The notes beneath the pieces were generated by a model. It searched no databases, was not told where the DNA came from, and worked only from the letters and a program-made list of their open reading frames with translations. Positions 5,307 through 13,209 of a stretch of 64,000 nucleotides of DNA are shown piece after piece. This stretch comes from a virus (lineage: Duplodnaviria; Caudoviricetes), in IMG/VR virus record IMGVR_UViG_3300010052_000153, positions 1 through 64,000 of that record; one strand, 5' to 3'. Both the position numbers and the translations under genes were made by a program. Position 1 is the first letter of the stretch. Every line of letters starts with the position of its first letter.

Positions 5307-6575
5307 TCAGGCCGCTGCTTTGTTAGCGCTTGGGGTGTTATCGTTGGCAGCCGTGCGGCCTGCCACCATGCCAGGTGTCAAGGTCAGACGCGCCACCTCG
5401 CCAAAATCTGCGTGATAAGTGATCACTTTCGCCGATCGACCCGACAACCACCCGCCGTTCGCGGCGTAGGCGTCTGCCGCCGCAAGCGTTTCGTGACGCT
5501 CAACCTTCATCAGGTTCGTTGTCAGCAGAGCATCCGAATGCAGGTGTCCGAGGTGGGCATAGCTGTACTTGGTTCGGCCGTAGACCTCGCGGAACTTGCC
5601 GGCGAAGACGCTGTCCACGTTGTCAAGCTTCCGCTTATGGCCGTGGTGATAGAACAGAGAGACGTCGCCGTGCTCGAACATGTAGTAGGTGCCGGCGCCA
5701 GCATCGACCGTAACGCGTGGCTCGTCGTCGTAGAACGCCGCGAACATTTCGCGCAGCCACGCTTCGCTCGCCGGGTCGTGGTTCGCGTCGGCCATGATGA
5801 CGTGCACACGATCGTGCTTTTCAAGCAGCATCTGGATGATGCGCCGCAACGACCGGATGACCACCCGAATGACCTTCGGAAGACGGCTGTCAGCATCCAA
5901 GATGTGGCCGCTCGTCGGCGTCTTCGATTCAAAGCCGTCGTGGTGCAGCAGGTCGCCGATCTGCGCCAGAATGGCGGTCGACGCATTAGGCGATGCCGCC
6001 ACAGCCGCTCCGAACCAATCGAGTAGTAGCCGCTCTGCGATGTTAAGGTCGTAGTCGGCGCCTGTTTCCTCGCGCCACGACAGCATACCGAAGTGCAGGT
6101 CCGTGACGGTAAACTGGTTGACGAGGTCAGGGCGATTGAAGTTCCGGGGCACGTCCACAGGATGTGCGCGCGGCAGGTCTTCTTTAAACGCCTCGATAGC
6201 AGCGCGCATGGCCGCATGTTGGGCGGCTCTATCAGGCTCCACCCGCAGCCAATCCTGAATGACGCGACCTTCCGCATCACGATTGACCGTAATTTTGCCG
6301 GTGACGTGCGTCGGCGGAATCTCGTAGATTTCTCCGGGTGCCTTCACCTGCCTGACATAAGTGTCGCCGATCTTCTCTGACAGGCTTGAAATGACGTAGC
6401 CGGGCAGCGTCGCCGCCGGACCCATCATTCCGCGCTCCGCGGCGCGTGCCAACCTGTCGTGGAAGGTGGACCGAGCACATCCTGCGGCTGCCGCAGCAAG
6501 CCGCTCAGTGCCGTGCTCTTCGTAAAGGCGCACGGCCTCCATCAACGTCTCGTCTGAGAGTTTAGTCAAATGCAA
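5307..6575 (-). CDS. N-terminal HTH fused to metallophosphoesterase domain
   Basis: HTH (TERLAAAAAGCARSTFHDRL) plus TDLH, GDLLHHD, ANHD, HHGH and GHLH motifs; ends AANDNTPSANKAAA. Confidence 0.75.
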   Translation of the reverse strand: MHLTKLSDETLMEAVRLYEEHGTERLAAAAAGCARSTFHDRLARAAERGMMGPAATLPGYVISSLSEKIGDTYVRQVKAPGEIYEIPPTHVTGKITVNRDAEGRVIQDWLRVEPDRAAQHAAMRAAIEAFKEDLPRAHPVDVPRNFNRPDLVNQFTVTDLHFGMLSWREETGADYDLNIAERLLLDWFGAAVAASPNASTAILAQIGDLLHHDGFESKTPTSGHILDADSRLPKVIRVVIRSLRRIIQMLLEKHDRVHVIMADANHDPASEAWLREMFAAFYDDEPRVTVDAGAGTYYMFEHGDVSLFYHHGHKRKLDNVDSVFAGKFREVYGRTKYSYAHLGHLHSDALLTTNLMKVERHETLAAADAYAANGGWLSGRSAKVITYHADFGEVARLTLTPGMVAGRTAANDNTPSANKAAA

Positions 6576-6596: not shown

Positions 6597-6857
6597 TTAG
6601 GGCGTTGACAGACCTGCCGACGACATCAGGCGACGATAGCGGCCGGTGCTCTTTATGCGGGCTCGAATTGCGTCAACGATCTCGCCGTGACGCATTAGTG
6701 TCGTGTCGAACACGACCCTCGCCTGTCCCACTTGGTTTACGTCGAACTCTGCGACGATGCTGTCTAGGATTTCAAACGGAATTATCAGGCAGCCGTTATG
6801 GACGCCCAGCACAGGCTGCTCAGGCGTAGCCAACTCCGATGACATGTCATTCATCAA
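6597..6857 (-). CDS. Hypothetical phage protein
   Basis: 86 aa ORF, GGAGG RBS. Confidence 0.6.
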   Translation of the reverse strand: MMNDMSSELATPEQPVLGVHNGCLIIPFEILDSIVAEFDVNQVGQARVVFDTTLMRHGEIVDAIRARIKSTGRYRRLMSSAGLSTP

Positions 6858-7546
6858 GCCGCCTCCCGTTCCCTCTTGGGCTCGTTGTCGTTCTCAGCCA
6901 ACACCTTGTAGGTGTGACTTGCGGCAGTCAGGAAGACGATCACGCCTTCGGGTTTTGCGAATCCCGGCGCAGCGACGGACCCTTCCGTCACGAGCTTGGT
7001 CATTGTCTCGTCGACCGCCGTTGTTGAGAAGTCACCGGCATACAACACCGGAACCACGCCGCAGCAGGCAGGCCGGTCATTCGACCAGCGACCAGCGTTG
7101 AATAGTGAGAAGCGGCGCTCTTTCAGGTCGTATCCACGCTGAATGCCGAGACCCCACCACTCGCCAAAATGGCGACCAACGCCGAGCTCACGCAATTCGT
7201 CGGTGTGCTTCTGCACCCACGCCGCGAAGCCAAAATTGTCGTTATCCGGAGTGATCCACCGATTGCGACTACCCGCGCGTACGCTGCCGTCTTCGCCAAC
7301 GACAATCTGCGCATTCGTGCCGTCAATCTTTTCGGTGATGATGCAGCCGCGCTTAAGGCGCGGGATTTTCGGGAACGGAACGTATTTTTCTGCGCGACTA
7401 TCGACAAACGACTTCCAATCATCCCAACCGCGGTCGAGAGTGGACCAATCGCCAGCGCGCCAAGCCTTTAGAAAAGGCTGCGTCTCGTGCAGATCCAAGG
7501 TGACCGCGAAGTCGATCGCCAAATTGAAATCCTCGTAGCGGTGCAT
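6854..7546 (-). CDS. ATP-dependent RNA ligase family protein
   Basis: Nucleotidyltransferase motif I TEKIDGTN, plus SRNR, FGEWWG, FSLFN and EGVIV; start ATG 7546 behind GGAGG. Confidence 0.8.
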   Translation of the reverse strand: MHRYEDFNLAIDFAVTLDLHETQPFLKAWRAGDWSTLDRGWDDWKSFVDSRAEKYVPFPKIPRLKRGCIITEKIDGTNAQIVVGEDGSVRAGSRNRWITPDNDNFGFAAWVQKHTDELRELGVGRHFGEWWGLGIQRGYDLKERRFSLFNAGRWSNDRPACCGVVPVLYAGDFSTTAVDETMTKLVTEGSVAAPGFAKPEGVIVFLTAASHTYKVLAENDNEPKREREAA

Positions 7547-7547
7547 C

Positions 7548-8000
7548 TCACCCTCCGACAGAAAATTCAGGTTGTTCGGCTTGCTTGGTTTCAGTGTCCG
7601 CGACCGGCGGCTCGCCGTCGAACTCGACGCCACCCGGCACGAGCTCGTCAGCATCGCCAGGCACGCGCGCGGTGACAGTCCCTTCCCCATCTAACGCCGC
7701 CTGCAGGTCGTTTGCGCTAGCTACTGAATAGGGCAGGACATAGTAGACGGCCGGCTGATTGGGCGACGCCAGCAACGCGTAGATTGCAACGTCGGGGACG
7801 ATCTGCGCGCCCACTACGGTGTAATGGCCGGCAGGGGGTGACGTGAAACGGGGCTGCCCCAACGGCACGTACAAGGCGAGCGCTGCGGCAGCGATCGCAG
7901 GCGTCAGCGTCAGAGCCGCCAGCCGGCTTGATGCAAGCCAAGCGAATGCACACAGCAGTAGCGCCAACGCCAACCATGTCGTTGCAATGACCATTGTCAT
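7548..8000 (-). CDS. Membrane protein, third gene of MotA/ExbB-like triad
   Basis: Two N-terminal hydrophobic helices followed by a soluble domain; coupled to upstream gene. Confidence 0.7.
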   Translation of the reverse strand: MTMVIATTWLALALLLCAFAWLASSRLAALTLTPAIAAAALALYVPLGQPRFTSPPAGHYTVVGAQIVPDVAIYALLASPNQPAVYYVLPYSVASANDLQAALDGEGTVTARVPGDADELVPGGVEFDGEPPVADTETKQAEQPEFSVGG

Positions 8001-8587
8001 TTGCCCTTGCTCCGCAGTTTTTTGAAGACCTGGTGCGCGGATCCGGGAACGACCTGTCCGTTGTTATCAAGCGTGAATCTGACGACAGTCCGCTCTTGGT
8101 CCTGACGCAGGTCCAGCTTCGTCGCCACCAGCAACTTCATCGCATCAGCCGAAGCCCCGTAAGACACTTCGACGAAGACAGACACGGCTCCAAGCGGGAG
8201 TGAGTAACCATGGACGTTGATGATGTACTCGCCTGCCGGCGTCGAACGGGCGAACGCGTTCTCCATGTTGACCGGCGACAGCTCTCCGTCGATTCCGCGA
8301 TCGTCTCGCAACAGGCTAAAGAGCTTCCCGCTTCGATTGCTGTAGCCTGTCGCCTTGTCCTGACCTGGACCAGTCACCCACAAGTCAACATCGCCTGGTC
8401 CTTCCGGCCAAGCTATCGCAACCGCGACTGAACCTGGCGGGCTGACCGTTACCGTATTCTGGTCAGTACGCGGGTTGATGCTGGACAAGGCCAACAACGC
8501 GTACGCGGAAAGAGCGAACACCGTCACCAGAAGGATGTCGACGTATGCCCAAAGCCAATCGTCCGCTGACTTTCCCATCCGACGCAT
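7997..8587 (-). CDS. MotB/ExbD-like single-pass protein with YfaP/DUF2135-like periplasmic domain
   Basis: TM segment WLWAYVDILLVTVF with intramembrane Asp; DVDLWV.GP, LLRDDRG and N.EN...GEYIINVH motifs. Confidence 0.65.
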   Translation of the reverse strand: MRRMGKSADDWLWAYVDILLVTVFALSAYALLALSSINPRTDQNTVTVSPPGSVAVAIAWPEGPGDVDLWVTGPGQDKATGYSNRSGKLFSLLRDDRGIDGELSPVNMENAFARSTPAGEYIINVHGYSLPLGAVSVFVEVSYGASADAMKLLVATKLDLRQDQERTVVRFTLDNNGQVVPGSAHQVFKKLRSKGK

Positions 8588-9057
8588 CAGAAATCGCTCA
8601 TTCGAATGACCGCTGTGGTGGCGACGATGCGGGCGTTGACCATCATCCAGAGCGCCAAGGACAAACCGACCAGCGACGAGCCGTATGCCGTTCCGACACC
8701 GGATAGCAGCTTACCGCCTGCCTCGCGGGCACCTTCAGGAGTGGCCATCGCCTCGACGCTGACTGAACCGAAGGCCGTGAGAATGCCCCACGCAGTTCCG
8801 ACCACGCCAAGCACAAAGAGGGCTTTGACGACGACGTCCAAGTGCTCGGATTTAGCTATTGCAACCTCAACCTCGATGTCATCGTAGGCCCGTTGGATGC
8901 GCGACATCGCGACAAAAGATGCCGCCAGACCGTAGGCGAAGACGGTGGCGATGATTAGCACCACTCCGTGCCCTATGAACTGATCGAGATATCCCAGCCA
9001 AAATGCCCATGCCGCTGCACATAAACCAGCGACATTTGCGACGAAAAGTCGGATCAT
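8587..9057 (-). CDS. MotA/TolQ/ExbB proton-channel family protein
   Basis: LGVVGTAWGILTAF and GVGTAYGSSLVGL helices; start ATG 9057 (ATGA overlap). Confidence 0.75.
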   Translation of the reverse strand: MIRLFVANVAGLCAAAWAFWLGYLDQFIGHGVVLIIATVFAYGLAASFVAMSRIQRAYDDIEVEVAIAKSEHLDVVVKALFVLGVVGTAWGILTAFGSVSVEAMATPEGAREAGGKLLSGVGTAYGSSLVGLSLALWMMVNARIVATTAVIRMSDF

Positions 9058-9278
9058 TTGGACGCCTTGTCGATTGAACGATATTGCGGGTCGGTGGGCA
9101 CCCATTCGAAGAAGATTCCTTCGTGGACACTTCTTGCGCTGCGCTCGACAAATTCGAGCCACCGCACCTCGTTTGGACCTACCCGGACGGGGTACCATGC
9201 GAACCATCGTCGCCACTCAGCGAAATAGTTCCTCGCATCGTTTCGACGAAGGCTCGTCGACCGCCGGCGAAATTTCAT
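9054..9278 (-). CDS. Hypothetical protein (WRRWFAWYPV motif)
   Basis: ATGA-coupled on both sides. Confidence 0.65.
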   Translation of the reverse strand: MKFRRRSTSLRRNDARNYFAEWRRWFAWYPVRVGPNEVRWLEFVERSARSVHEGIFFEWVPTDPQYRSIDKASK

Positions 9279-9922
9279 TGTGCCCGCCCCAGCAACTGGC
9301 AAATGACGCTTGACGGAACCGCGAAGCCCATACCCCCCTCTCCGCCGCCGAAAACCATTGCGCCAGCCGTGATGCCGATAACGTCGCCAGCCTCATCGTA
9401 AACGGGTCCACCAGACATGCCCTGAATTGTGGTCATGTCTGTCACGAAAGCGGACTTCCACTTCTCAAGTCGCCGTTCGCCTCCCGAGACAAAGCCGTGC
9501 ATAGTGATGAAATCGAAGCCGATCGGGTTTCCGGAAGCGGTGATGGCCTCTCCCACGACGACATCGCGACATTGCAGGTTTGCCGACCGAAAGCGCTTGC
9601 TGTTGTGGGGACGGATCACCGCAACATCGTATTCGGCATTCGACCAGAGAACGTCGCCGTTCTGCACGTCGCCTGCATCACTCTTGATCTTGACAGTCTT
9701 AGTCTGCGGCTGCACCACGTGAGCGGCAGTGATGATCACATCGTTCCCGATGTAGACCCCACTACCAACGCCACCCGATGTCTCGATGCGCACACTCGGC
9801 GCGGCCTGGGGCGATCTGTTCGCAGATGCATCAACGCCATTGGCGCAAGCACCAAGAAGTGCGCCCGCGATAGCCAAGATGGCGCCCGCTGCGACATTCG
9901 CAGCCAGGTTCGTGTTTATCAA
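9275..9922 (-). CDS. Trypsin-like serine protease, predicted lipoprotein
   Basis: Lipobox LLGAC; catalytic TAAHVV, DVAV and GMSGGP. Confidence 0.85.
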   Translation of the reverse strand: MINTNLAANVAAGAILAIAGALLGACANGVDASANRSPQAAPSVRIETSGGVGSGVYIGNDVIITAAHVVQPQTKTVKIKSDAGDVQNGDVLWSNAEYDVAVIRPHNSKRFRSANLQCRDVVVGEAITASGNPIGFDFITMHGFVSGGERRLEKWKSAFVTDMTTIQGMSGGPVYDEAGDVIGITAGAMVFGGGEGGMGFAVPSSVICQLLGRAQ

Positions 9923-10051: not shown

Positions 10052-10084
10052 AAAAAAAGCCCGCCAACCTTTCGGCTGGCGGGC
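10052..10084 (-). terminator. Rho-independent terminator after lysis cassette
   Basis: GC stem gcccgcca/tggcgggc followed by a T7 run on the minus strand. Confidence 0.8.
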
Positions 10085-10094
10085 GATGCCGCCA

Positions 10095-10421
10095 CTATGT
10101 GCGGCGGGACGGCGACTTCTGCTCGAAAACGCGATCAAGTCGTTCGTTGGTTCGATCAATCTTATCACCGACCGAATCGATGGCCTTCATGATGGCGGAA
10201 GTCTGCTCCTGCATTCCCGCCTTCGTGACATATGTCTCAGCGACATGCAGTTTATGTGCGGCAAGGTCGTGCTGTGCGCGTTCGCCCTTGTCACCGGCTT
10301 CATCAATCAACCCCCACATCCGCCAAAACGCACCCGCCAAGCCACCAATGACAGCCAGACCGAAAAGGATCACGCTCATTAATTCGGCGCCGGTCATGCC
10401 GACGACTTCACTACCATTCAC
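10095..10421 (-). CDS. Lysis-cassette-associated protein (one TM plus coiled coil)
   Basis: N-terminal hydrophobic helix, C-terminal heptads, last gene before terminator. Confidence 0.65.
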   Translation of the reverse strand: MNGSEVVGMTGAELMSVILFGLAVIGGLAGAFWRMWGLIDEAGDKGERAQHDLAAHKLHVAETYVTKAGMQEQTSAIMKAIDSVGDKIDRTNERLDRVFEQKSPSRRT

Positions 10422-10720
10422 TTATCATTTCCTAGGAGTTCTCGGAGTTTATCGTAAAAGCGCGCACACACCTGGACCTGCCTGTTCAGGCGATCCAATG
10501 CGGCCCGTTCGCGCTTGAGAATTGAGCGAATGTCTTCGCCCCTATTGAGCGCCGCATGTATTTCAGTCCTGCGACACACTTCCGGCCAAGCCGGCAAAGT
10601 AACGCCGGCCTCGGTGCGCCCCTTTCGGAACGCCGCCTCTTGGCTAGCGGTTACGCAACCACTCGACATCGCTGTCGCTAAGAGTACAGCGACGACCGGC
10701 ATCAGCCAGCTTCTTTTCAT
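10418..10720 (-). CDS. Outer-membrane spanin (Rz1-like lipoprotein)
   Basis: Signal peptide with lipobox SSGC; overlaps the i-spanin 3' end in another frame; start uncertain (10720 or 10702). Confidence 0.7.
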   Translation of the reverse strand: MKRSWLMPVVAVLLATAMSSGCVTASQEAAFRKGRTEAGVTLPAWPEVCRRTEIHAALNRGEDIRSILKRERAALDRLNRQVQVCARFYDKLRELLGNDK

Positions 10721-11072
10721 ATTCGGCGATTTCCTTTTCAAGGACCGCTTGTTCGGCACCTTGGACGCGGGCAGCGTTGTCTAGATCGCGCTGAAGTTCG
10801 GCCACCGCGCTTTCAGCGGCTCGACGCTGCCGCTCTTTCTCCGCCATCTGCGCAACCAACGAGTCGCGTTCAGCGGCGAGGACGTAACCCTTGACGGCAT
10901 CACTGGCGACGCGATCGACCCGTCCGTCGACCAAGCCGGAAATAGCTTCGCCCACCACGGGTAGATTTCTCAGTGGACCGATCGGCGCGCCTTCATAGAA
11001 GACCAACATGCCGCCAGCCACAAGCACCCAAGTCGGGAGTGCAGCCAATAGGTATCGAAGGAAGAGGCTCAT
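10644..11072 (-). CDS. Inner-membrane spanin (Rz-like)
   Basis: N-terminal TM followed by coiled coil, directly after endolysin. Confidence 0.7.
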   Translation of the reverse strand: MSLFLRYLLAALPTWVLVAGGMLVFYEGAPIGPLRNLPVVGEAISGLVDGRVDRVASDAVKGYVLAAERDSLVAQMAEKERQRRAAESAVAELQRDLDNAARVQGAEQAVLEKEIAEYEKKLADAGRRCTLSDSDVEWLRNR

Positions 11073-11086
11073 GGAGAAGCCCCTCC

Positions 11087-11557
11087 CTAGATCCCGGCTA
11101 GGCAGAGCTTCTGCTCTTCCGCGCGTCGCCTAACGAGGCCCTTCACTACTTTTCCACCGGCCTTGTTAAACAGCGGAATGCTGTTGCAGGCCCGCTTCAG
11201 ATCGCCGGCATTAGCGAACCGCGCCACGCTGGATTTGCAGAATGCGCCGTTGCCGATGTTGTAAGCAAGAGACAGAAAGGCGACATAGGGCTTGTCCGGA
11301 ACCTTGTCGGGAGCGCGGAGACATTTTCGCATTCCCGTTTCAAATTCGACCAGCGCATCGCCAAGCATTTCTTTGCACTCTTCGACCGAGTAGCTGTCAC
11401 CCATTTTCACGCCGCGGGTTTCGCCGAAGCACACAGTCGGAATTCCGACAATGTCGCGATATGCCATCGTGCGCAGGCCTTCAAAGCTACCAACAATGCC
11501 AACAGCAAGGGAGCCGGCCACGGTTAAGCCGAGGCCAGCCTTTCGTAATCTACTCAT
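11087..11557 (-). CDS. GH24 lysozyme, SAR-type endolysin
   Basis: E-x8-D-x5-T triad (FEG..RD..PT) directly after a Gly/Ala-rich N-terminal helix. Confidence 0.9.
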   Translation of the reverse strand: MSRLRKAGLGLTVAGSLAVGIVGSFEGLRTMAYRDIVGIPTVCFGETRGVKMGDSYSVEECKEMLGDALVEFETGMRKCLRAPDKVPDKPYVAFLSLAYNIGNGAFCKSSVARFANAGDLKRACNSIPLFNKAGGKVVKGLVRRRAEEQKLCLAGI

Positions 11558-11765
11558 CGGGAAGATCCTTCTGCGCGACGATCCGCGCCACGAAGGCGGC
11601 CATCGTCACGACCATAGAAAGCGCCGCGAAGGCGCCAGACGGTATGGGCAGTTCGCCTAGGAACGGCAGAACCACTTCAAGGCCAGACAGCAATCCGGCA
11701 AGCAATATCAGGCGGATGCTCCACGCCTTGCGGAGCACCTCACGCCAGTTGGGTAGCAGGCGCAT
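11550..11765 (-). CDS. Holin
   Basis: 71 aa, two TMs, NWREVLRKAWSIR N-terminus, adjacent to endolysin. Confidence 0.75.
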   Translation of the reverse strand: MRLLPNWREVLRKAWSIRLILLAGLLSGLEVVLPFLGELPIPSGAFAALSMVVTMAAFVARIVAQKDLPDE

Positions 11766-11799
11766 CGTGTGGGAGGGAAATCCAGATGACGGACGTCGC

Positions 11800-13209
11800 C
11801 TAGAGAAGCGGGCGAACGTCGAGACGATTGAAGTTGGTGGACCTCGAGACAGCCCCTGGCCCGAACCGAACCAGCAGGTCGTCATCCGAGGTGGCTACGA
11901 ATTCGAAGGTCAGCACGTAGCCTTCGAGGACGCCGTTGACGCGTTCTTCGAACATCCTCTCGTTGGAGAAGGTGCCTTCGCTGTAGCCGCTCGAGAGCGC
12001 GCCTCCGAAATAGTAGAGCAGCGTGGTTTGTGGCGTCGTCGCTCCGTCCCAGGTCTGCACCCGGACGTAGGAGTCTTGGTTTGGGGCCACCGGCGTGAAC
12101 CGCACACGGATCTGGACCGCTTGGCCGCTTACCGCGCCCGCGGACAGGAACGTCTCCAGACCGCCGTAGTTGAGCGCGCCGCCGTTCGTTACGAGCGCGC
12201 CGGTGGACGACGCCCCGTCTTTGTTCGACCAGCTACCCGCGCCACGATTGCCCGGTGTTCCCACGACGATACTGTCGCCCAGCGTCGGCGCGCCAAAGGC
12301 TTCGAGGAAAGCTTTCTCGGCGAGCGGATAACGGCCGAAACTCAAGCGCGTCACGAAACCGGCGGCTTGGTCATTGTTGAAGTAGGAGTGCCAGTCCACG
12401 CGGTTAGCTTCGATGAACGCCGCCATCAACGCGATAAAAGCCGCGCCCTCCCCGTTCTGATCCGTTCCCCATTCGGGGATCGTGAACAGCTTTCCACGAG
12501 CAGCCGCGAAGGCAGCGGCCCAATTGATCCCCTTCTCCTTCGTGGTGGCGTACGCCCAAAAATCGGCGGCGCTCATCTCGATGGATGACAGGAAGTAGAC
12601 GTCGCAGCCGATCGTGTCGACGAAAGCGTTACCAGGGTAGCAAGGCTCCGGGTCGTCGCCGTACCAGTTCACATTCCAATCGAACGTGAACCGCGGTGAG
12701 AGCCCTTTTGCCATTGCGTGCAGCCTACGCCAGGCGGCGACATAGTCCGATGCGAACTCGCCCTCGCTGCCGATCGACCACGGCCAACCCGTATTGTTTG
12801 GCTCGTAGCCGGGCCGAAGGGCGATCTCGCCGCCCCATGTGGCGTCGGCGAGGATGGCCTCGAGGATGTATGCCAGGTCTGCGTCATGCGCGCCGCCGGC
12901 AACATCTGCGAGCGGCGTGCCGTAGACCGTCAGCGGTATTGACCAGACTTTGCGCTTGTCGGTCTCGGCGTAGACCGTGATCCAGTCGTCGACCGACTGG
13001 CGTGCCGAGGCCCAACTGCCTTCATTGACGAAGGCCATCAAGAAGTCGGTCGGCACGCCCAGCCAGTCGTCCATCTGAGAGACGAGGTCCACGCCGGCCG
13101 ACGAGAACACCGTCGCGCCTTGCAACCGCCGTGGCGCCGGCAGCGGCCGTGCGCGAGCGCCTCCATCGCCGGGATCGAATGCCCAGCCGTGTGAGAAGAG
13201 CGAGCGCAT
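11800..13209 (-). CDS. Glycoside hydrolase family 26-like protein with C-terminal beta-rich domain
   Basis: RPGYEPN (acid/base), FDWN, YPG...VD.IGCDVY and IPEWG (nucleophile). Confidence 0.75.
   Translation of the reverse strand: MRSLFSHGWAFDPGDGGARARPLPAPRRLQGATVFSSAGVDLVSQMDDWLGVPTDFLMAFVNEGSWASARQSVDDWITVYAETDKRKVWSIPLTVYGTPLADVAGGAHDADLAYILEAILADATWGGEIALRPGYEPNNTGWPWSIGSEGEFASDYVAAWRRLHAMAKGLSPRFTFDWNVNWYGDDPEPCYPGNAFVDTIGCDVYFLSSIEMSAADFWAYATTKEKGINWAAAFAAARGKLFTIPEWGTDQNGEGAAFIALMAAFIEANRVDWHSYFNNDQAAGFVTRLSFGRYPLAEKAFLEAFGAPTLGDSIVVGTPGNRGAGSWSNKDGASSTGALVTNGGALNYGGLETFLSAGAVSGQAVQIRVRFTPVAPNQDSYVRVQTWDGATTPQTTLLYYFGGALSSGYSEGTFSNERMFEERVNGVLEGYVLTFEFVATSDDDLLVRFGPGAVSRSTNFNRLDVRPLL

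Follow-up and report, generated by a model that had tools for sequence, protein, structure and literature searches.

What kind of machine is encoded by three small, overlapping membrane-protein genes that lie side by side in a tailed-phage genome, and what use could a phage have for it? The genes in question, which we call A, B and C, fill positions 7548–9057 on the minus strand of the stretch of DNA analysed here (the window), which comprises the first 64,000 nucleotides of IMG/VR record IMGVR_UViG_3300010052_000153 (Duplodnaviria; Caudoviricetes), a record of 82,927 bases that is classed as a provirus. Ion-driven motors of 5:2 composition are known to perform a handful of jobs: they rotate flagella, power Ton-dependent uptake, maintain the envelope through Tol-Pal, drive gliding and type IX secretion, and serve in Zorya defence. 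In our view the trio probably constitutes one inner-membrane machine of this kind, in the smallest form known, and in the paragraphs below we set out the evidence for each of its three subunits, the spread and constancy of the trio, and the roles that it could play in infection.

Gene A (8587–9057, 156 residues), gene B (7997–8587, 196 residues) and gene C (7548–8000, 150 residues), with lengths as given by the translated open reading frames, are all read from the minus strand and are packed so closely that the stop codon of A and the start codon of B share TGATG (8589–8585), while the stop codon of B and the start codon of C share ATGA (8000–7997). The three translationally coupled genes that an earlier reading of this DNA from its letters alone (hereafter the sequence-only reading) had placed in this interval are therefore present at exactly these coordinates. 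The ATG at 9057 is backed as the start of A by relatives of 157–158 residues that align with it from residue 1. At the protein level each of the three has relatives at over 150 further loci, in which the gene order is constant, and A, B and C are therefore real genes rather than chance open reading frames; the base composition of the trio stretch is no different from that of the remaining window.

The A protein consists of four hydrophobic helices and, in the alignment of its family, has three invariant residues (G87, G91 and W137) and joins helices 2 and 3 by a link that is short and variable; the chain stops about 15 residues beyond the last helix and is thus almost devoid of a cytoplasmic domain. 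When a family profile of 74 relatives was searched against the chains of solved structures, the best match was ZorA (8qyy, E 7.9e-8), followed by 8vvn, another MotA/TolQ/ExbB protein (E 3.1e-6), MotA 8gqy (E 3.9e-4), TolQ (E 8.5e-4) and ExbB (E 0.016), and the top 20 rows were all superfamily members that aligned on the same two C-terminal helices. This segment (residues 72–145; 8623–8844, minus strand) comprises the two helices and their connecting loop, holds G87, G91 and W137, and matches the channel core of the solved motors; the PADLOC ZorA1 model covers nearly the same part of the protein (residues 72–140, E 1.4e-9). Since the profile matches solved members on the channel helices, A is a genuine, if remote, member of the MotA/ExbB/TolQ/ZorA superfamily that has been stripped of the cytoplasmic domain which these four proteins turn towards the cell interior, and the gene directly 3' of it encodes a one-helix subunit with a membrane carboxylate, as in the MotA/ExbB/TolQ/ZorA pairs. 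The sequence-only reading had likewise called A a MotA/TolQ/ExbB-type channel, a call that is borne out at the profile level (best E 8e-8), though below the Pfam threshold; none of the curated libraries places A above threshold. Phage forms of A span 132–190 residues; chromosomal forms, with 205–281 residues, have additional sequence inserted after helix 2 and before helix 3.

The B protein is the one-helix, bitopic subunit, and its AlphaFold2 model (predicted local distance difference test, pLDDT, 87.4) consists of a helix at residues 9–37, a proline-containing linker, and a beta-sandwich at residues 53–173. Within the helix, the segment WLWAYVDILLVTVF (residues 11–24) carries at position 17, close to the cytoplasmic end as in ExbD, TolR and MotB, the aspartate that we presume to be the ion-binding carboxylate (codon GAC, 8537–8539, minus strand), which is kept in 147 of 153 B relatives (96%), mostly with an arginine before it. 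A transmembrane helix with a MotB-type W..Y.D pattern and the ion-binding aspartate had been predicted here; the helix and the aspartate stand, but the pattern does not hold as a family trait, the W-x-x-A-Y-x-D spelling being restricted to one B subgroup and only the aspartate, mostly with its preceding arginine, being conserved family-wide. The family itself is large: at 50% identity it falls into 1,832 clusters (E <= 0.001), the best 150 of which are mostly of about 180–215 residues.

The periplasmic head of B (residues 50–173; 8069–8440, minus strand) had been described in the sequence-only reading as a YfaP/DUF2135-like domain standing in place of an OmpA-like one, and this description survives a direct comparison of family alignments built from genomes, in which hhalign was used to set B against DUF2135-bearing regions and against TerD proteins. 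Against the PF09906-bearing regions hhalign gave 95.5% in the local and 96.8% in the global comparison (E 1.4e-8), and 95.8% with the B domain alone (E 7.7e-9), as opposed to 0.3% for a control with reversed sequences; a protein-language-model search (Atlas) also led towards DUF2135, if weakly (0.84). The PF09906 (DUF2135) model itself has no match in the provirus at E <= 10, nor in 37 B members, and Pfam, PHROGs, NCBIfam and PADLOC return nothing for B; in the search of the B profile against solved chains only weak rows appeared, among them a pilin (0.06) and a subtilisin C-terminal domain (1.3). In fold, the closest structure is TerD (2qz7_B, Z 10.2, root-mean-square deviation 3.4 over 129 aligned residues; 2kxt, Z 9.4; next row 5.9), which Foldseek also finds (E 1.7e-4). 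TerD was accordingly considered as a homologue of the B head and rejected, as hhalign gave only 2.6–3.9% for this pair, and five B-bearing genomes contain no PF02342 (TerD) match at E <= 1e-5. Because hhalign gives 95.5–96.8% for the one family and 2.6–3.9% for the other, the DUF2135 call is right and TerD an analogue at the level of fold only; on the profile evidence the head is homologous to YfaP/DUF2135-type domains, rather than OmpA-like or ExbD-like, and B is not a TerD family member despite its TerD-like fold. The head is unusually conserved, with fourteen invariant positions (G52, W60, D66, D68, L92, L93, D95, D96, G98, N107, E109, G119, E165 and T167), among which D66, D68, D95, D96, N107 and E109 are suggestive, but only suggestive, of a calcium-binding acidic motif.

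A further line of evidence comes from the membrane carboxylate, which was compared in an alignment of all 177 A/B pairs. In 169 pairs the aspartate lies in the B helix and there is no acid at the position of the last helix of A that corresponds to Ala124; in seven pairs, which form one clade (L056–L059, L066, L069 and L074), the B aspartate is replaced by threonine, alanine or glycine and a glutamate occupies the Ala124-equivalent position of A. The one residual pair is an alignment slip in which the aspartate is in fact present, and no pair carries the carboxylate on both subunits or on neither. The motifs of the variant clade read F-R-(A/T/G)-Y in B in place of F-R-D, and G-L-R/K-(I/V/T)-E-I-S in the last helix of A, where a basic residue stands two places ahead of the relocated glutamate. 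A reciprocal pattern of this sort would be expected if the A/B interface depended on one buried carboxylate, and the move from B to A lends independent support to an ion path at that interface.

The C protein is modelled (pLDDT 83.5) as a two-helix membrane hairpin (helices 2–22 and 26–44, with a positively charged turn between them), followed by a small beta-barrel with one helix (58–128) and an acidic, proline-containing tail. Given the charged turn and the positive-inside rule, the barrel would lie in the periplasm. The sequence-only reading had C as a protein with two transmembrane helices in a TonB-like position, of which the two helices (in the model) and the place after B hold, whereas the likeness to TonB does not extend to its domains: Pfam (E <= 1), PHROG, NCBIfam and PADLOC offer no family for C, and no TonB_C or TolA domain. 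A fold search with residues 56–129 has OB-type barrels as its best rows (Z <= 6.8), with no TonB row listed. Longer fused forms of C were sought at 348–2000 residues only, and none was found in that range, and a tblastn search of C against GenBank phages matched six rhizobial phage records only. The Atlas contains a viral cluster of 297-residue proteins, all with Phage_lysozyme, whose N-terminal part as predicted can be superposed on the hairpin and barrel of C (template-modelling score 0.64 by query, 129 residues), a hint that cell-wall hydrolases can carry a C-like module.

That the three proteins work as a unit is suggested by the constancy with which their genes travel together. A gene-neighbourhood survey, which the sequence-only reading had put forward as a check, was run with B alone as the query, and it recovered the order A-B-C on one strand in all 84 phage loci (80 viral contigs, three GenBank phages and the window), in 73 of 80 genome loci, and in all 14 of a set of more distant chromosomal loci (G+C content 29–69%). 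Six of the seven exceptional genome loci are cut by a contig end at most 450 bases past B, and the remaining one has no detectable A; no other gene was found to be kept throughout the trio loci. By this measure C is obligatory as the third subunit. The cassette is also common, with B being present in 14% of the genomes sampled from the class of the host (42 of 301), nearly always as a single copy, and with at least 496 loci confirmed in the genome collection, mostly from Alphaproteobacteria. The trio tolerates splitting by selfish or small genes, as is evident from Rhizobium phage 16-3, where the small open reading frames p039 and p041 separate the three genes, and from Rhizobium phage RHph_X2_25 (L002 4535–5077), where an HNH endonuclease gene lies between B and C and a Seg-like homing endonuclease gene about 3 kb upstream. 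One protein of the representative library (P0135, 342 residues) joins A and B in frame, with A residues 3–151 and B residues 173–337 in a topologically consistent arrangement; this could be a true fusion or a stop codon lost in assembly.

The description of the triad as phage-encoded needs to be narrowed in the light of this survey, since the trio is indeed carried by phages but is not specific to them: the distant chromosomal copies are found next to genes for a phosphoribosyltransferase, cytochrome c, a pyrroloquinoline quinone (PQQ) dehydrogenase, and major facilitator superfamily (MFS) and AI-2E transporters. Half of these distant copies (7 of 14) have a fourth gene of 231–264 residues directly past C, with a borderline DUF3108_like match (24–27 bits against a cut-off of 27), namely L190 (8192–8983), L191, L192, L193, L194, L195 and L198, the last of which has three tandem copies; the gene was found in none of the phage loci. 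Because the A of phages is shorter than that of the distant chromosomal copies and the fourth gene is absent, the phage trio is a trimmed copy of an alphaproteobacterial cellular system.

How such a machine could work can be outlined from its homology to the solved motors. Five A subunits, each with four helices and with both ends in the cytoplasm, would surround the helices of two B subunits; protons would pass via Asp17 of B, and the protonation cycle would turn A relative to B. With no cytoplasmic domain on A, the work would be delivered in the membrane or the periplasm and not to a cytoplasmic rotor or effector. For the head of B, whose acidic cluster is invariant, the probable binding partner is either a metal, for instance calcium, or a ligand in the envelope; the head may then anchor B as MotB is anchored by its OmpA-like domain. 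The likeliest driven element would be C, on account of its strict co-occurrence and coupled translation; it may ride on A as TonB and TolA do on ExbB and TolQ, carrying movement into the periplasm. Several points weigh against this assignment to the 5:2 motors. The Pfam scan of A gave no match, with MotA_ExbB (PF01618) reaching 13.1 bits against a cut-off of 22.9; the Pfam scan of 37 B members gave no family, including ExbD, OmpA and MotB_plug; fold searches produced no recognisable relative of C; the carboxylate relocation is confined to one clade and is perhaps a single evolutionary event; and the placing of five A around two B is a prediction by homology. A complex predicted from A, B and C at 1:1:1, with C as the partner, scored 0.01, which speaks neither for nor against an assembly.

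Comparison with the established systems brings out both the familiar and the novel features of the trio. The ExbB-ExbD-TonB and TolQ-TolR-TolA systems share with it the order of a channel subunit, a one-helix subunit with a membrane aspartate near its cytoplasmic end, and a third membrane protein that reaches into the periplasm, as well as the profile match of A to TolQ and ExbB on the channel helices and an output that is presumably periplasmic; they differ in that the A of the trio has four helices and nearly no cytoplasmic domain, the head of B is not the alpha-beta domain of ExbD and TolR, and C, a two-helix protein with a small barrel, bears neither a TonB_C nor a TolA domain; no outer-membrane partner is known for the trio. 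ZorA is the best solved-chain match of A, and ZorA-ZorB is, as the trio would be, a non-flagellar motor tied to phage biology, but A is without the long cytoplasmic tail of ZorA, B is without the peptidoglycan-binding domain of ZorB, and the trio is carried by a phage rather than directed against one. Membership of Zorya finds no support in the locus, where no match to the ZorC, ZorD or ZorE effectors was found and no PADLOC match to B or C, and where nearby genes encode a protease and an RNA ligase. With MotA-MotB and PomA-PomB the trio has in common the four-helix topology of A and the profile match to MotA 8gqy, and the W-x-x-A-Y-x-D before the helix of the window's B is similar to E. coli MotB; it is unlike them in having no torque-generating cytoplasmic domain, no plug, no OmpA-like domain, and no linkage to flagellar genes. 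GldL-GldM and PorL-PorM also have a B-type subunit with beta-rich periplasmic domains, and the seven-locus clade, with its glutamate on A and an arginine beside the lost aspartate on B, recalls the pairing of a GldL glutamate with a GldM arginine; however, no sequence match was seen, and the proteins are built differently, GldL from two helices plus a cytoplasmic domain and GldM as a long chain that spans the periplasm. Outside the motors, YfaP/DUF2135 proteins are related to the B head at the profile level, although none of those sampled is joined to an ExbD-like helix, and TerD shares the beta-sandwich fold of the head without sequence-profile homology.

Literature searches found no function for DUF2135, and those on phage 16-3, on phage-borne MotA/ExbB, on TerD or DUF2135 with ExbD, TolR or MotB, and on YfaP found no description of the trio cassette; papers on 16-3-type phages annotate its genes as hypothetical. 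A 2025 survey of MotAB relatives covers non-flagellar forms with assorted extra domains, and the form of the trio is not among them (PMC12505986). As far as the searchable papers go, the trio would be an undescribed form within the ion-driven 5:2 motors.

In the window, the trio belongs to a tightly packed operon that starts just behind the end of the lysis cassette, in a region where all surrounding genes are on the minus strand. Directly past the last lysis-cassette gene, and about 135 bases ahead of the protease gene, lies an intrinsic terminator (10059–10084, minus strand) with an 11-pair stem (nine G-C) and a tail of seven T, TTTTTTTG (-28 kcal/mol, z -3.3). The operon then runs through a trypsin-like periplasmic protease with an N-terminal hydrophobic stretch (9275–9922, phrog_9683) and an open reading frame of 82 residues with no family match (9054–9302), whose start overlaps the end of the protease gene and whose stop codon shares ATGA with the start of A (9057–9054). 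On the other side of the trio, the RNA ligase gene (6854–7546) starts one base past the stop codon of C and is followed by a DNA repair exonuclease gene (5307–6575) and, beyond it, by metallophosphatase and deoxynucleoside monophosphate (dNMP) kinase genes. A scan for promoters of the sigma-70 type between the terminator and the protease gene found none, although this consensus may not suit the host. Rhizobium phage 16-3 has the same layout, namely a terminator at the equivalent place (L001 1695–1722), p035, the protease p036, p038 (A), p040 (B), p042 (C) and the exonuclease p044. Three neighbours were considered as members of the cassette and rejected: the protease, found upstream of 46 of 164 trios, every one in a single phage lineage, and missing beside the chromosomal copies; the 82-residue open reading frame, with relatives in two viral loci only; and the exonuclease, a neighbour in one phage lineage.

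Most likely the phage trio acts on the cell envelope during infection. As to the form that this action takes, the first-ranked guess, tentative as it is, is that the trio helps with or times envelope breakdown and release, an endolysin gene being found within about 3 kb upstream of it in 37 of 83 phage loci. A number of observations pull the other way, however. In more distant genome loci lysis genes are seldom near the trio (6 of 80); genes for the protease, the exonuclease and the endolysin are common only in 16-3-like and Mesorhizobium-type phages, and the link between trio and lysis genes, which is mostly seen in these, may be one of inherited gene order; a strong terminator stands between the lysis cassette and the trio operon; and the chromosomal copies among housekeeping genes show that there is a cellular job independent of phage lysis. 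The nearness of holin and endolysin genes would also suit a simpler device, a controlled proton leak, in which the A/B channel merely lowers the membrane potential, for example to set holin firing, with the head of B and C as regulators of its opening and with no mechanical output. Unplugged stator channels do leak protons, as is known from MotB plug mutants, and A has no torque-transmitting cytoplasmic domain. We nevertheless place this explanation last and regard it as improbable, given that the terminator divides the trio from the lysis cassette, that a depolariser would do harm in the housekeeping contexts of the chromosomal copies, and that the B head and C are so highly conserved as to suggest specific partners in the periplasm.

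Ranked between these two are a role in competition with other phages and a role in support of the host envelope. Other phages or bacteriocins may depend on a route through the envelope that the trio alters or occupies, either by competing with the host's own motors (Tol, Ton, stator, Zorya or the cellular trio) or by poisoning them; such superinfection exclusion or interference would be in keeping with the provirus nature of the window, with temperate relatives such as 16-3, with ZorA as the solved chain closest to A by sequence, and with the cellular copies in the same bacterial class, which make mixed assemblies conceivable. We place it next after envelope breakdown and consider it doubtful, as the trio is no self-standing moron but part of a gapless operon with protease, RNA ligase, exonuclease, phosphatase and dNMP kinase genes, there is no sign of a ZorA tail or of Zorya effectors, and the conservation of the full trio, with its aspartate and periplasmic head, would be needless for a mere decoy. 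Alternatively, the phage may supply an auxiliary copy of a host system, that is, more of a cellular machine for the upkeep of the envelope during infection, unrelated to lysis or exclusion. The occurrence of B in 42 of the 301 sampled genomes, nearly always once in each, accords with this, as do the housekeeping and transporter genes around the distant copies and their DUF3108-like fourth gene; but the phage forms are consistently trimmed, with a shorter A and no fourth gene, which suggests a phage-specific adaptation, and the explanation itself accounts for little. It comes third in our ranking and seems unlikely.

Should the motor reading of the trio be correct, it would add a very small architecture to the 5:2 motors, with a ring subunit that has no cytoplasmic domain, a stator-type subunit with a DUF2135-type head, and an obligatory two-helix partner, and it would supply the first functional context for DUF2135. 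The trio is common, and its many phage carriers include the genetically tractable Sinorhizobium phage 16-3; it would be a compact object for structural work on the coupling of ion flow to movement, and the variant clade is a natural experiment in the placement of an essential carboxylate. If the phage use is indeed envelope breakdown or exclusion, this would be a new viral exploitation of host membrane energy. On a broader and speculative view, the trio may be a self-contained, proton-driven force transducer of the periplasm, a third kind in addition to Ton and Tol. Alphaproteobacteria would be its original home, from which phages would have taken it repeatedly and reduced it in size; at the expense of the membrane energy of the host, it would serve them by exerting force on the envelope late in infection or by keeping rivals out, and its variants, which have the carboxylate on one subunit or the other, may bridge the MotAB-type and GldLM-type ion paths.

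The lysis cassette that precedes the operon is likewise read from the minus strand. Upstream of the terminator, it comprises a holin gene (11550–11885), an endolysin gene (11087–11557), a spanin-like gene of 142 residues with an N-terminal helix (10644–11072), a spanin-like gene of 113 residues whose start reads as a lipoprotein signal (…SSGC; 10418–10759), and a gene for a membrane protein of 108 residues (10095–10421). The 142- and 113-residue genes (10418–11072) have no library family match, and in their arrangement they resemble an overlapped spanin pair.

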